Source of the DNA: Chlamydiia bacterium
GTDB lineage: Bacteria; Chlamydiota; Chlamydiia; Chlamydiales; Rhabdochlamydiaceae
Length of the DNA stretch: 64,000 nucleotides
Assembly (NCBI GenBank): GCA_963804085.1
Contig: CAWDOQ010000002.1
Coordinates: 64,001-128,000, forward strand
Direction: 5' to 3'
The notes below the pieces were generated by a model. The model saw only the letters and a list, made by a program, of their open reading frames with translations. It ran no database searches and was not told where the DNA came from. Numbering within the stretch: position 1 is the stretch's first letter; each line of letters starts with the position of its first letter. Position numbers and translations under genes: made by a program. Shown here in pieces: positions 320 to 61,291 of this stretch.

Positions 320-391
320 AACGTGCCCGTGTGCCGTGCCCGAATCCGGATTAATTCCGGGCACGGGCACGGGCAGGGGCACGGGCACGTT
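320..391. repeat. GC-rich REP-like palindrome (GCCCGT-type arms)
   Basis: aacgtgcccg...cgggcacgtt inverted arms around the core atccggattaatt. Confidence 0.9.
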
Positions 392-416
392 AAAGAATAC
401 TAGGAGTTTTATTCTT

Positions 417-725
417 ATGGGCAGCGGATATTCGAAAATGAAAAAGCAAGCGCGCATGATGGAAGAGCAGTTCGGAAAGATGCGCGAAGAGATGAAAGCC
501 AAGCAGCTTTCAGGCTCAAGCGGCAATGGCCTTGTGACAGTTATAATCAATGGAGAGAAAGAGCTGCAAGAGATCCGCATCAAGCCGGAATGTGTCGATC
601 CTCAAGATCTCGAAGGGTTGCAAGACCTGATTAAAGCAGCCCTGCAAGACGCCTACCAAAAAGCCGGTGAAGAGTCCGACTCTCCCTTAGGTAGTGGCAT
701 GCCCCTTCCCTTCGGCAAATTTTAA
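417..725 (+). CDS. ybaB: YbaB/EbfC nucleoid-associated protein
   Basis: MGSGYSKMKKQAR...GNGLVTV...CVDPQDLEGLQDLIKAA; ATG at 417 after AGGAG; the longer ORF start lies within the palindrome. Confidence 0.9.
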   Translation: MGSGYSKMKKQARMMEEQFGKMREEMKAKQLSGSSGNGLVTVIINGEKELQEIRIKPECVDPQDLEGLQDLIKAALQDAYQKAGEESDSPLGSGMPLPFGKF

Positions 726-2423
726 AATCGTCCTACCTACATCTGCCGAGCAGTTAAGCGGAAGCACCTGCTCGGCAAGCAGAAGCGCCTCCTCAAATGA
801 GGATTGGTGGATCGTCTTTTTTACAAAAGGAATATAGCGGGGTGCGCAAGAAAATGCCTCTATGCCTAATCCAAGTAGAAGAGGGATAAAGAGAGGATTG
901 GAAGCAAGCTCGCCACAGATCATCAGCGGCTTTTTATGCAGCCTGGCAGCATCAGCTACTAGCTTGATCATGCGCGGAATGCTCGGATGTGTCGGAAAGC
1001 AGAAGTCATTCATGAGCGGATCTCTGCGATCGATACCCAATGTATATTGAACTAGATCGTTTGTGCCGATCGAAAGAAAGTCGCTCTCCTCTGCTAGCGC
1101 ATCGCAAATATAGACTGCGGCAGGCACCTCCACCATGCAGCCTAAAGGAACCCTACTTGCATATGGCACCTTTTCTCGTCTCAGCTCGTCTGCCACTTGA
1201 GTAAGGAGCAGCTTTGTCTCTCTGAGTTCTTGGATATCTGCGATAAGGGGCAAGAGAATCCGGACATTCTTTTGAAATGCGGCTCTTAGGATCGCTCTGA
1301 GCTGAATCTTAAAGAGAGGCTTTCTGTGTAGAAGAAACTGGATGCCTCTGCCAATTTCATGCGAAAGTAGCGCAGGGCTCTTGTCTCCCCCAATATCAAA
1401 AACGCGTATGACGACAGGCAGGTCGTTTGCCTGCTGGAGCAAGCTCTGGTAGGCTTGGTATTGGCCCTCCTCTGATTCGAGCAAGAGTGGATCTTCGAGT
1501 AGAAGATATTCGGAACGAAACAGCCCCACCCCATCACCCTTCATCTGGTGCAAGAGCTCCATCTCATCAACACTGCCGATATTGCCATGGATCTCTACCG
1601 AGTATCCCTCGACAGTCTCAGTCTTTTCCAGCACCTCTTTTTTTAAGAGTTGATAGGAGGCTTGCCAGATCTCTCTCTTCTCTTGATACTCCAGAAGCGT
1701 GCTTTCGGTCGGATTGAGAATCACCTCGCCTCGCGTACCATCGATGATCACCTGCTTGCCTTCCGCCTGCTGCATCAGATGCATGTCGATGCTTGCAACA
1801 CAGGGAATCCTCTTAGCTCTTGCGATGAGTGCGGCGTGCGAATGGCCCCCTCCAAAATGGATGACAAAACCACTGACCTGCGAAGGATGGACAGTCGCTG
1901 TATGTGAAGGAACAAGCTCGTGAGTGAAAACGATCGAGTCGGCAGGGATATTTTCGAAAAACTTTTGGGGATGATGGGCAAGATGATTTAAAATTCTCTT
2001 CGAGACATCGCGCACATCGATAAGACGCTGCTCGAAAAAGGAGTCCCTACTCTGCGTGAGCTTTTTTTCATAGTCGGTAATCACCGCACGAAACACCGAC
2101 TCTGTATTCTTCTGCCTGTTACGGATCTTATCTTCGATATTTGTCGTAATGAGGGGATCGGCGAGCATCTGGATGTGCGAGTCTATGATCGTAGCAGCAT
2201 CAAAGGAGCCCTCTTGCTTTAAATTAGATTGCAAAAGGCGCAAATCCTCTCTACTCGAAAAGAGAGCTCTTCTCCAACGCGCGATCTCTCTATCCACTTC
2301 GGAAAGGTCGATCTCAACCTCAGGCACAAGTTCAGCATCCTGCTGCTGGTGCGACAAGAAAAAGGCTGGGCCAATCGCGATCCCTTCACTTACGGGCGTT
2401 CCTTGTAATCTGTTCTCTTTCAC
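687..2423 (-). CDS. ptsI: PTS enzyme I (PEP-protein phosphotransferase)
   Basis: SHAALIAR phospho-His motif, GVGLFRSE, MVEVP, SIGTNDLVQY, MICGE. Confidence 0.95.
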   Translation of the reverse strand: MKENRLQGTPVSEGIAIGPAFFLSHQQQDAELVPEVEIDLSEVDREIARWRRALFSSREDLRLLQSNLKQEGSFDAATIIDSHIQMLADPLITTNIEDKIRNRQKNTESVFRAVITDYEKKLTQSRDSFFEQRLIDVRDVSKRILNHLAHHPQKFFENIPADSIVFTHELVPSHTATVHPSQVSGFVIHFGGGHSHAALIARAKRIPCVASIDMHLMQQAEGKQVIIDGTRGEVILNPTESTLLEYQEKREIWQASYQLLKKEVLEKTETVEGYSVEIHGNIGSVDEMELLHQMKGDGVGLFRSEYLLLEDPLLLESEEGQYQAYQSLLQQANDLPVVIRVFDIGGDKSPALLSHEIGRGIQFLLHRKPLFKIQLRAILRAAFQKNVRILLPLIADIQELRETKLLLTQVADELRREKVPYASRVPLGCMVEVPAAVYICDALAEESDFLSIGTNDLVQYTLGIDRRDPLMNDFCFPTHPSIPRMIKLVADAARLHKKPLMICGELASNPLFIPLLLGLGIEAFSCAPRYIPFVKKTIHQSSFEEALLLAEQVLPLNCSADVGRTILKFAEGKGHATT

Positions 2424-59555: not shown

Positions 59556-59643
59556 ATTTTTTGCCTCTGTACTGTACAAAAAATTAATGTCGAAAAATTT
59601 CTACAGGAAGGCAAGCAGCAGGATAGGCAGAATAAGAAAGAAA

Positions 59644-59751
59644 AAGAGTTAAAACAGGATGGGCAGGATAGACAGGATGAAGATGAAGAAAGAATTTTTT
59701 TTTGTTTCTCTTTCTTATCCTGTCTATCCTGCCCATCCTGTTTTAACTCTT
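59644..59751. repeat. Palindrome built from CAGGAT units (9-nt period)
   Basis: Perfect 35-bp inverted repeat aagagttaaaacaggatgggcaggatagacaggat / atcctgtctatcctgcccatcctgttttaactctt. Confidence 0.92.
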
Positions 59752-59778
59752 CCTTTTTTCTCGCGTTCCTCCTTTTCC

Positions 59779-61291
59779 TCATCCTGTAAATCCTGTTATA
59801 AGCCTTGTGTCTTCCAAATTTTTGTCGAGCACAGAGATTTTTTGCATCTCTTGCACGACTTTTTTATAAAAAAGCAGTCTCTGCAAATATTCTTCGATGT
59901 GGGGCGAGCTAATTTCAAGAGACTTGCGCGTCCATATCGGCTGCCAGACCTTCCAGAGCGGATCTATTATATTCTGAAAAGCAAGCTCCTCTTCCAGCTC
60001 TACCTCTAAAAGAGCCCCCTCTCCTGTTTCAGAAGGGAGCCTCGGAAAGCGCTCATCGAAAAGAGCGAGCAGCTTTTCAATTCTCTCACCAGAGCGCTTG
60101 AGGCTGCTCTCAACAACATGCAACAACTCCTGCACTTGTTGCTTCTCTATTCCAAGTGGTGGAATCTTGTTAATCTCTTGCTGAACAAGATTGTGTAGAT
60201 CCCACTCTCTTTGGCAATGCTTGCTTGCAAGAGCAGAAAGCGAGCTTGCGCTTGCCTGAATAAAGTTATGTTCGGGATGCTGCTTCGCAAAATTTTCAAG
60301 CCACTCCTTTGCAAACAGCCAGTCGCGGCGTGTAAATGCCTTTTTGCCGTTTGAATCTTGGATAGAAACTAGTCCTTCAGTCCCCTCCTCCACTCCTGCG
60401 GCATAGAGCTTCTCCCCGTCGCTTGCCAGGTCTACCCCTACAAAAATAATGCGGATTACACCCTAATTCCACGCTAAGAGCCGTACAGAAGGTAGCGACA
60501 TTCCACCCGCCATCAAATGTGCTCTCCTCTATCCCGCACTCTTTTTGAAGCCACTCTTCGATCGGATAGCCGCCGCTCCCCTCCATCCAGAGAAGGGGCG
60601 CGTGGATAGACGCAAGAAGCTCCTGCGAAACACGGCTCTGATAAAAGAAAGGAGAGCTAAAGCTCGCCTGCCCTTTTAACCTCTCATGAGGGGGATCGGG
60701 ATCGATACTCGCTGCAAAGTGGGGAGTGATCTTCTCTTGCGCCAAGATATTTAAAGCGGATCCTCCCGCAAAGAGAAGAGCATTGTTTTGCAGTTTACGC
60801 AAAGCCCCTATCTCGCGCTCAAGCGTAGGGCCCGCGCCACAGATGATCGCAGGTATCCCTTTGAAACGGTTGAATAGCGCGCGCCCGCGTTTTGCATCAC
60901 AAAACTTTGGCATATTGGCATAGACGTTGCTTAAGATGCGCACACCAAAATCGCGAAAATCTGAGGCGACCAGGTGCACGCCAGACTGGTAGTGCCGCAT
61001 CTTGCTAAAGAGCTCTTCTGCTCTCTTTTTCTGCTCGGAAGGGCCAAGCGCTAAATAGGAGAATTTCAGAAAGACAAACTCCCAAGCAGCCTGCTTAAAA
61101 GACTCCTCATCGCCTGTAAATACAAACCGCACTCTGGAATCTTGAAAGAGTGCCTGTATATGGTCGCTCTCTTCCAGGATGCAGAGAAGCCGCCTCTCCT
61201 GCTTTTGGTTCAGCCACTTGGCAACTTCAGGATAAACCTCGCCAAAATCACCGCCGTAGAGACAAACAATATCTGTGTCTTCTTCAATCAT
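59779..61291 (-). CDS. Maf/DUF115 (MptE-like) family protein B (+1 frameshift near 60450)
   Basis: PAIICGAGPTL, LLFAGGS, PHFAASIDP, LGCNP then IIFVGVDLA in the shifted frame. Confidence 0.78.

Follow-up and report, generated by a model that had tools for sequence, protein, structure and literature searches.

The 64,000-nt stretch analyzed here, hereafter the window, spans positions 64,001 to 128,000 of contig C2 in the 2.13-Mb genome (24 contigs, 47-50% G+C) of a member of the Rhabdochlamydiaceae, and carries long palindromes dispersed among its conserved genes. A sequence-only reading of this stretch had taken these palindromes for recurrent points of breakage and recombination at which single genes are acquired and swapped, that is, for an integrase-free cassette system. 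While our analysis largely bears out what that reading observed, the mechanism that it proposed is mostly unsupported. In our view the palindromes are probably selfish hairpin families, the main one of which (termed AB) would be the gene-less form of an element resembling the intervening sequences (IVS) of 23S rRNA, whereas gene gains would proceed by a separate, homology-anchored recombination, the two overlapping in permissive junctions.

The palindromes pointed out by the sequence-only reading are real and their numbers far exceed chance: a regular expression for hexamer arms retrieves 265 arms from the genome versus 1 from a Markov-1 random genome. A repeat search recovers 47 inverted-repeat pairs in the window, the longest arms measuring 33-42 nt, and a separate scan for arms of at least 16 nt finds 11 inverted repeats in the window and 305 genome-wide. 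AB elements are 75-85 nt long and consist of two near-perfect arms of 30-36 nt, each built of five or six hexamers (for instance CGCGCC CGCTTC CGCGCC CGCATG CGCGCC, with the variants CGTGCC, CCTGCC and CTTGCC), around the loop TCCGGATTAAT; CCGGATTAAT, a word of the loop, is present in 84 places genome-wide. By regular expression 89 elements are complete and 87 apparently solo; a search for diverged partners revises these figures to 111 elements that are complete-like and 44 solo arms that are bona fide, the latter representing about 28% of AB elements. Folded as DNA, the copy at 18792..18874 reaches -55.7 kcal/mol (z = -13). Other families, with units GTGGAC, CAGGAT/ATCCTG, GTTACC and xCGGAC, follow the same plan of a 6-10-nt unit array, a loop and the inverted array, and hairpin repeats unrelated to these array-built families occur as well; no Rfam family matches the hairpins. 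Similarity between neighboring AB copies does not exceed that of random pairs (0.584 vs 0.564, p=0.55). Apart from one block with rearranged ends (C7/C19, see below), the variant contigs of the assembly yielded only a single 8-nt unit indel, inside a palindrome of the C1/C3 pair. Repeats of other kinds were also noted: a tandem array of short G/C-rich units spanning about 600 nt (C22:4300-4900) is matched by the arm expression without being a palindrome, and a structured repeat of about 90 nt with two small hairpins is found on opposite strands at 35830-35925 and 57795-57895 of the window, in at least 8 genome copies, one copy closing the Sel1/MORN block on its right, immediately downstream of the MptE-like gene.

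The gene found between AB arms carries the interpretation of their origin. At three places in the genome, arms 360-525 nt apart each enclose an open reading frame (ORF) of 115-131 aa (Table 1), and these ORFs are the genome's only full-length matches to PF05635 (23S_rRNA_IVP/S23p), the four-helix-bundle family, with scores of 83.7, 79.1 and 69.4 bits (E 1.8e-23 to 4.8e-19). The surrounding AB arms are 27-47 nt long and lie 23-125 nt from the gene, and a rough estimate of the chance that arms flank three genes on both sides is ~6e-9. The proposal to look for four-helix-bundle genes beside the repeats was hence fruitful. A fourth PF05635 match is truncated and sits between two complete xCGGAC-type hairpins. 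Among the split palindromes, i.e., six pairs with 285-525 nt between arms and a seventh, around an S23p gene, that was added by hand, none encloses cargo other than an S23p-type gene, and a simple GxxExxY regular expression has no match in ORFs enclosed by inverted repeats.

The same arrangement recurs beyond this genome. We scanned 40 related genomes, the nearest of which belong to other genera of the family, for the PF05635 gene and the hexamer-arm pattern. One such gene is present in each of 7 genomes, and in five of the six relatives inspected (G010, G013, G005, G001, G036) it is bracketed by inverted CGTGCC/CGCGTG hexamer arrays, the unbracketed sixth being a pseudogene. The hexamer-arm pattern, 20 nt and three units long, occurs in 6 of the 7 genomes with the gene versus 7 of the 33 without it (p=0.0026), and is found 192 times here, 179 times in G005, 70 in G036, 26 in G001, 19 in G013 and 0 times in 27 of the 40. 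The gene-less hairpins of G005 have the opposite polarity, with the G-rich arm first, and the arms around its PF05635 gene do likewise. We conclude that an IVS-like element gave rise to the AB palindromes as derivatives devoid of its gene; a literature search found no description of such derivatives or of a link between arms and gene. Two of the G005 hairpins (L145:8977-9100 on G005:C45 and L146:11576-11691 on G005:C20) consist of a G-rich arm, a loop of about 30 nt and a C-rich arm with GATC flanks, and one G005 hairpin stands directly upstream of serS, i.e., at the UPF0158/serS junction, which holds four palindromes in the genome under study.

The Coxiella 23S rRNA IVS is described in PMC4990558 as a 28-bp terminal-inverted-repeat stem whose loop holds an S23p ORF, accompanied by tandem heptamers that vary in number; the same source, with reference to Coxiella, Leptospira and Salmonella, presents IVS as long suspected of mobility, aided by an ORF that is prone to decay. 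Gene-bearing AB copies share with it the PF05635 ORF between terminal inverted repeats and the short tandem units. In contrast, the AB copies of the window, all of them devoid of an ORF, lie between protein genes (Rfam finds only three tRNAs in the window) rather than in helix 25 or 45 of 23S rRNA, where IVS reside and whence RNase III removes them, their arms are hexamer arrays, and the gene-less form amounts to about 150 short copies. To the repetitive extragenic palindromes (REP) and REPINs served by REP-associated tyrosine transposases (RAYT), as portrayed in PMC3733652, the family is alike in being high-copy, lineage-specific, intergenic and free of target duplication, in flanking its associated gene (which is single-copy in REP/REPIN systems) and in having singletons that derive from decayed pairs. 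The REP of that account, however, is an imperfect palindrome of 20-40 nt with a GTAG or CGTC tag at one end, whereas the longer AB stem ends in CGTGCC or CGCGCC without either tag and its associated gene encodes a four-helix-bundle protein instead of a Y1 transposase. Unlike miniature inverted-repeat elements derived from DDE transposons, AB generates no target-site duplication and has no parent insertion sequence (IS) among rve and DDE_Tnp_1, the two IS types compared. PF05635 is itself reported to resemble Avd of diversity-generating retroelements (PMC10053308); RVT_1, the reverse transcriptase family, has no match in the genome.

Candidate mobilizing enzymes were likewise considered. As the sequence-only reading had it, the window lacks an integrase or transposase (none among the 60 ORFs scanned) and holds comEC, the Competence domain being in ORF 3439-6204. 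Elsewhere the genome encodes one Y1 transposase, three tyrosine-recombinase (PF00589) matches, at C22:74.6 kb, C2:231 kb and C16:85.9 kb, and two copies each of rve and DDE_Tnp_1 elements. The Y1 gene (PF01797, IS200/RAYT-type; C17:57812-58264, 150 aa) is single-copy and flanked by its own 63-100-nt inverted repeats (C17:57700-58364), unlike AB, partial copies of these flanks occurring at C19:164.3-166.5 kb, C2:164.2-164.5 kb and C16:88.8-90.5 kb; it thereby corresponds to the "TIR-flanked RAYT" type (TIR, terminal inverted repeat) as that type is presented in PMC3733652. A link between AB and this transposase was rejected because the gene has its own flanks, and links to the rve (1473 bp) and DDE_Tnp_1 (1187 bp) IS were rejected because their ends are unlike AB arms. 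Beside the Y1 gene there is also a half arm of AB, in degenerate form, along with a short direct repeat of flank.

The distribution of AB elements bears on whether they serve the host. Under a crude gene model, 82 of 101 are intergenic, and their split over tandem, convergent and divergent spacers (46/20/16) tracks the intergenic length in each class (171/60/74 kb), so that AB is not tied to gene 3' ends. No target-site duplication accompanies them: flank direct matches for k=2-6 number 9, 4, 0, 0 and 0 in 80 elements, against 8.1, 2.7, 1.0, 0.5 and 0.2 in shuffled flanks; loop orientation shows no bias with respect to local GC skew or gene direction. Just beyond the arms, both flanks are pyrimidine-rich and nearly free of G over 10-15 nt when read towards the element. 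In 88 elements the GC skew within 15 nt of the arms is -0.47 (left) and +0.42 (right), falls to -0.03/-0.04 at 15-60 nt and is about 0 at 60-400 nt (control, 943 palindrome-free spacers). The "C-to-G switch" pointed out previously thus exists, since this flank composition together with arms that are C-rich and then G-rich produces it, but it is intrinsic to the repeat, has vanished 15 nt out and does not extend into the adjacent genes as had been supposed. That the hairpins are terminators, mRNA 3' stabilizers or insulators that shield the neighbors of new genes from read-through would agree with their very stable stems and with the many that stand directly past stop codons and fill convergent gaps. 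Their frequency per length is nonetheless the same in divergent, promoter-side spacers as in convergent ones, the flanks (pyrimidine-rich upstream and purine-rich downstream on both strands) leave no U-tract after the stem, and the lack of an Rfam match speaks against such a role as well; copies that are nearly identical, arms that stand alone and a master form with a gene are all rather what selfish spread would produce, and we regard a host-serving function as very improbable.

A second body of evidence concerns the gain of genes. Two genes do lie, as had been observed, between the 3' end of a host gene and a duplicate of that end accompanied by a half-palindrome, namely the vWA gene at comEC and the AAA-DUF4143 gene at ctcC (Table 1). 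At comEC the second copy lacks 47 nt that follow the first, comprising six bases, the left arm and the loop. At ctcC the two copies of the 82-nt 3' end (49653-49734 and 51220-51301) share 89% identity, and an empty site is available for comparison in a 4912-nt record among the contigs of a soil-metagenome run (X3). This record differs from window positions 46600-49665 at 195 sites (~6%), then joins 49665 directly to 51233 and runs to 51349 with 5 differences in 117 nt; it therefore comes without the DUF4143 gene and without one repeat copy, retains a 3' end of the remnant type and carries the half palindrome already. The joint of the insertion falls within ctcC coding sequence, some 100 nt away from that half palindrome. 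The presence or absence of 1567 bp with respect to a relative of ~94% identity is clean, which upholds the earlier claim of gene gain at these junctions, by one or a few genes at a time; no integrase lies beside them. Beyond the shared left arm the X3 record diverges at 51349/51350, the inner edge of that arm, and a search of this genome for the 30 nt that follow there, tolerating as many as 3 mismatches, gave no match. Within the 1567-bp indel, upstream of the AAA-DUF4143 gene, positions 51092-51145 hold two direct copies of a word of about 24 nt (with ACGTGGTTAGCTTACACG), which may be an operator or a promoter.

Scars of this kind are not confined to the window. Self-comparison of the genome yielded 71 low-copy local direct-repeat pairs, and among the 19 high-identity pairs examined (three of which were detected by other routes) nine show one copy that stops no more than 14 nt from the stop codon of an intact gene, with the other copy on the far side of 0-11 inserted genes. 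The duplicated ends belong to comEC, ctcC, TamB, GatB, def (peptide deformylase), a NifU-like gene, DUF6314, DUF2807 and one unnamed gene; they are 21-164 nt long and 89-100% identical. The inserts comprise vWA, DUF4143, TipAS with one ORF, a CopG/nucleotidyltransferase pair with one ORF, three autotransporter pieces, an 11-gene island and others, and none of the nine encodes a recombinase. A homology that ends at the stop codon, in duplicates of variable length and divergence, fits the recombination of DNA from a diverged relative through coding sequence and agrees poorly with a staggered cut. Three inserts carry an AB palindrome along, and their donors would therefore belong to a lineage with AB-type hairpins, a family encountered in only some related genera.

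Direct repeats over the 3' end of a gene are a classical signature of island integration. It could accordingly be argued that the duplications are attachment scars of small site-specific integrating units or, in the case of AAA-DUF4143, the work of a nuclease-driven, homing-like gene that brings a replacement end. The AAA_14-DUF4143 family is indeed expanded (13 matches, ~11 genes, in 2.1 Mb), and 7 of the 10 genes examined are convergent with their neighbor and end between -46 and +23 nt from its 3' end; the gene of the window matches the PADLOC candidate defense family PDC-S01 with an E-value of 6.6e-173, and DUF4143 figures in the PD-(D/E)XK nuclease superfamily as tabulated in PMC3424549. 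The nine targets nevertheless share no common sequence, their repeats vary in length, no insert encodes a recombinase and most lack DUF4143, and the flanks of the DUF4143 paralogues show no nucleotide similarity to one another, all of which makes either origin highly unlikely.

Homology-anchored gain, in turn, has known counterparts. As in the minimal mobile elements of Neisseria, differing whole-gene cassettes are found between the same conserved genes without an integrase, and in the description of PMC3082526 these are exchanged by homologous recombination in a competent bacterium with a repeat-rich genome; unlike them, one homology flank is here inside the 3' end of a conserved gene, a duplicated remnant is left, and strain-level exchange is documented at one site. 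Homology-facilitated illegitimate recombination combines one homologous anchor with microhomology at the opposite joint, and the duplicates seen here resemble such anchors. Insertion of foreign DNA next to a single stretch of homology, without a dedicated recombinase, would be common to the present case, to that process and to Campbell-type single crossover as treated in PMC3240628 and PMC2884548, the route being deduced here from scars. Under the interpretation that we favor, an incoming segment from a related strain would recombine with a conserved gene by way of homology to the 3' part of the latter, either by single crossover of a circular intermediate bearing a 3' fragment or by homology-facilitated illegitimate recombination; the insert would supply the new 3' end, and the old 3' end with the DNA downstream of it, often a hairpin repeat, would be left as a remnant beyond the insert. 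The hairpins would form several small selfish families, AB being the gene-less form of a unit made of arms and a gene of ~115-130 aa, like that of 23S rRNA IVS. The gene-plus-arms unit is common to other genera of the family, and gene-less copies would have multiplied here and in two other lineages, settling in non-coding DNA approximately by length, in either orientation and without target duplication, and decaying through loss of one arm.

The remaining question is to what extent the two phenomena are connected. Most accessory genes were said to be bordered by a palindrome, and this stands for six to seven of nine, which have one in an adjacent spacer: vWA, ORF 17508, MFS, ORF 20408, ORF 37731 and, on one side only, ORF 28049, the AAA-DUF4143 gene having only a half site 265 nt away. 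The remainder do not conform: no palindrome accompanies the lipase-like ORF, any of the five tandem paralogues (43019-46575) or the greater part of the Sel1/MORN block. Five palindromes, conversely, stand between conserved neighbors with no accessory gene (dnaX-like/ybaB, RR-MBL/MBL, yebC/GNAT, truA/HAD and MptE/ORF204), and three of these gaps (RR-MBL/MBL, yebC/GNAT and truA/HAD), which measure 1-48 nt in relatives, hold only a palindrome here. Two of the genes called accessory keep their position in relatives, the MFS gene in G003 (54% identity) and the lipase-like ORF beside yebC in G002 (34%), and the F-box label given to ORFs 17508 and 28049 receives no backing from Pfam, which assigns no family to either of them or to ORF 37731 and only a sub-threshold ATG16 match to ORF 20408.

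Integron cassettes are single genes, arrayed in one orientation and each ending in an imperfect-palindrome attC site, that depend on IntI and attI. The genes of the window resemble them in being single and bordered by palindromes, but no PF00589 match is present there, the bordered genes lie on both strands and dispersed among core genes, and the palindromes, unlike attC, are near-perfect hexamer arrays that also stand between core genes.

A weaker form of the original model requires no dedicated enzyme: extruded hairpins or cruciforms would be cut or would stall replication, and repair would capture or replace the neighboring DNA. Several observations, gathered here, weigh in its favor and against the interpretation that we have put forward. 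When 86 junctions inside synteny blocks are compared, palindromes occur in 17 of 25 with extra genes versus 8 of 61 without (odds ratio 14, p=1e-6), an enrichment that replicates outside the window (9/14 vs 5/38) and is still detectable by spacer (21/75 vs 8/61, p=0.038). The three solo arms in scored junctions are all in variable ones, complete copies being divided into 10 variable and 6 tight, and the proportion of solo arms in the genome would imply that breakage at the center is common. All three structural breakpoints between near-identical sequences lie at or beside hairpins: the X3 divergence at 51349/50, which is one case of a hairpin center serving as a breakpoint, and both ends of a 6.3-kb block shared by C7 and C19 at 98.4% identity, each of which abuts an xCGGAC-type hairpin. 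A palindrome lies within 150 nt of a copy in five of the nine duplication inserts, against 18.8% of spacers genome-wide (p=0.015 counting one spacer and, by hand calculation, ~0.15 counting both copies). At six places, that of vWA among them, AB arms 1.0-1.6 kb apart form a pair around a single non-S23p gene, although many such pairs around single genes are expected by chance because 19% of spacers are occupied. At C23:95818-97351 two A-type palindromes with a private loop variant (duplicated TTAATCCGGA) flank a single 397-aa ORF, which makes this place the best candidate for the joint duplication of a palindrome and a gene. The 8-nt unit by which the C1/C3 variants differ inside a palindrome points the same way. 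To these must be added the crudeness of the ORF-based gene model (1905 genes, 84.7% coding), a palindrome catalog that misses imperfect copies, a close-relative comparison that covers 5.4 kb only (X3), and the circumstance that movement of AB repeats by the four-helix-bundle protein is something that we infer.

The enrichment, however, disappears when palindromes are counted per kb of non-palindromic spacer (2.21 vs 1.81, p=0.70; 22 of 30 observed, 69% expected). The expectation that gene-content differences concentrate at palindromes is hence borne out per junction but not per kb, and the association, while real, is accounted for by the amount of spacer; we note that such normalization may hide a real effect, since insertions create spacer. 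The variable junctions of the window (Table 1) vary as well in relatives, all of other genera, whose fetched regions (486 kb) hold 29 long inverted repeats, the hexamer type being absent from the syntenic loci of G002, G009 and G004, so that hotspots exist without the repeats. Two of these junctions hold tRNA genes, which are classical hotspots. The split palindromes enclose only their own four-helix-bundle gene, the DUF4143 joint falls in the ctcC coding sequence at a site where the half palindrome predates the insertion, and four of the nine duplication inserts have no palindrome nearby. These results do not sustain hairpins as acquisition sites or as parts of a dedicated capture system, and we consider even the fragile-site version rather unlikely: palindromes and accessory genes would coincide mainly because both accumulate in few long, permissive junctions, with hairpins being at most occasional fragile sites and not capture machinery.

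Table 1. Features of the window (plain coordinates) and of other parts of the genome (contig:coordinates), with the extent of the variable junctions
Feature	Position	Strand	Remarks
NDH-2-like/ComEC fusion ORF, 921 aa	3439..6204	+	Pfam Pyr_redox_2 4.4e-51, Competence 1.8e-39; conserved in 5 relatives
21-nt direct repeat, copy 1	6182..6202	+	3' end of comEC ORF
vWA gene	6399..7463	-	between repeat copies; Pfam VWA_4 1.1e-13; absent at junction in 5 relatives
21-nt direct repeat, copy 2	7528..7548	+	comEC 3' end remnant; 21/21 identical to copy 1
Solo right AB arm	7549..7581		directly after copy 2
ctcC/NtrC-type sigma-54 activator	48376..49734	+	Pfam Sigma54_activat 6.8e-70; last 82 nt duplicated downstream
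AAA_14-DUF4143 ATPase gene	49737..51059	-	convergent with ctcC, 2 nt from it; PADLOC PDC-S01
Remnant copy of ctcC 3' end	51220..51301	+	version at X3 empty site
Solo left AB arm	51324..51350		22 nt past remnant copy; shared with X3 relative
1567-bp segment	49666..51232		one repeat copy, AAA-DUF4143 gene and its upstream region; absent in X3 relative
AB palindrome, CGTGCC-type arms	321..391		loop TCCGGATTAAT; dnaX-like ORF end/ybaB; no accessory gene here
AB palindrome, complete	6209..6283		33-nt arms, 9-nt loop; just past comEC stop
AB palindrome	12590..12668		fills whole 82-nt gap of two convergent conserved genes; relatives 1-19 nt
Other-family palindrome	17211..17369		arms of GTGGAC-containing 9-10-nt units
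AB palindrome, complete	18792..18874		36-nt arms
Solo left AB arm	20295..20327		followed by pyrimidine-rich run
GTTACC-type hexamer palindrome	22415..22498		35-nt arms, 100% complementary; upstream of serS
Unrelated inverted repeat	27898..28000		17-nt arms, 69-nt loop; past P-type ATPase gene
AB palindrome	35260..35340		fills yebC/GNAT gap; relatives 4-7 nt
AB palindrome	38201..38291		between ORF 37731-38186 and UGP3-like gene
AB palindrome	41766..41842		fills truA/HAD gap; relatives 1-48 nt
Palindrome of 9-nt CAGGAT/ATCCTG units	59644..59751		35-nt arms, 38-nt loop
tRNA-His	7654..7728	+	Rfam; in variable comEC/bacA junction
tRNA-Leu	42888..42973	-	Rfam; in variable HAD/M15 junction, adjoins five tandem paralogues
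comEC/bacA junction			1.6 kb here; relatives 0.3-6.5 kb
UPF0158/serS junction			5.5 kb here; relatives 0.24-6.6 kb
ATPase/GDH junction			1.2 kb here; relatives 0.12-17.8 kb
HAD/M15 junction			4.1 kb here; relatives 0.13-6.2 kb
ctcC/MptE junction			8.2 kb here; relatives 0.01-2.2 kb
AB arms with PF05635 ORF	C10:17476-18060
AB arms with PF05635 ORF	C10:160176-160716
AB arms with PF05635 ORF	C19:343640-344058		haplotig copy on C7
DUF4143 gene	C13:27720-28883
DUF4143 gene	C17:24465-25592
DUF4143 gene	C10:77954-79183
DUF4143 gene	C19:47585-48784
DUF4143 gene	C8:36365-37486
DUF4143 gene	C10:138728-140053
DUF4143 gene	C10:213809-214612
DUF4143 gene	C16:94015-95274
DUF4143 gene	C2:130404-131684
DUF4143 gene	49737-51059		the window's copy (see above)

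As to the genomic setting, Pfam reveals in 60 ORFs of the window a housekeeping complement of chlamydial type, with PTS enzyme I, HPr kinase, SWIB, the NtrC-type CtcC and its kinase, YebC, RF-2 and a UGP3-like enzyme. Gene order is conserved in the left half of the window in G002:C2, G009:C17, G004:C7, G001:C33, G011:C3 and G003:C27, and in the right half in G002:C3, G009:C20 and others. Protein searches found no close relative, the best CtcC identity being 67% in GTDB relatives and 63% in metagenomes; an exact search for the 21-nt loop-plus-stem word gave 0 matches in genome contigs and 0 in metagenome contigs, and the metagenome runs X1 and X2 provided only short, identical, low-depth pieces. 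Within the genome, the short contigs among C1/C3, C7/C19, C9/C10 and C14 are 95-98% identical variants of parts of long contigs, from which it follows that the assembly is a mixture of closely related strains (contamination figure, 4.97%); C14 combines pieces of C10 and C19 in a mosaic that surrounds one IS copy.

Some side observations on individual genes may be recorded as well. The NDH-2-like and ComEC parts form one continuous match in G009 and two separate ones in G002, G001, G004 and G011. The bacA (7770-8559), ftsK (8566-10918), serS (22575-23859) and MptE-like (57919-59579) genes each appear as two overlapping ORFs in different frames and give one continuous match each in relatives; these splits are frameshifts or assembly errors. 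The homology of the GDH gene (32103-32812) to its relatives ends at residue 1006 of 1031, its tail is overlapped by an opposite-strand ORF and synteny with G002 and G009 breaks there, for which reason a rearrangement may have replaced the GDH 3' end. The tandem group of five paralogues (43019-46575), ORFs of 221-260 aa that belong to no Pfam family and are in parts 63-84% identical in nucleotide sequence, adjoins the tRNA-Leu gene and a BRO-N-like ORF and is absent at this junction in the relatives compared.

These findings put two testable ideas in the place of the unsupported integrase-free cassette system. On the one hand, the linkage of a hairpin family with periodic arms to the four-helix-bundle gene suggests a possible function to be tested for both, in a gene that for 30 years has been known only as the orphan ORF of rRNA IVS and as the Avd accessory protein of diversity-generating retroelements. 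A bolder generalization, which we put forward tentatively and with less than even confidence, is that S23p/Avd-family proteins might be the partners of widespread, undescribed mobile hairpin repeats with arms of 6-9-nt units, much as RAYT are to REP; the classical 23S rRNA IVS would then be copies that landed where RNase III makes them harmless, and the fragile centers of exploded gene-less copies would add to gene turnover at intergenic hotspots. On the other hand, an environmental chlamydia endowed with a ComEC gene bears at least nine scars of a distinctive mode of gene gain, one of them still polymorphic between close relatives. Both the hairpin-gene link and these scars bear on gene exchange in obligate intracellular bacteria.

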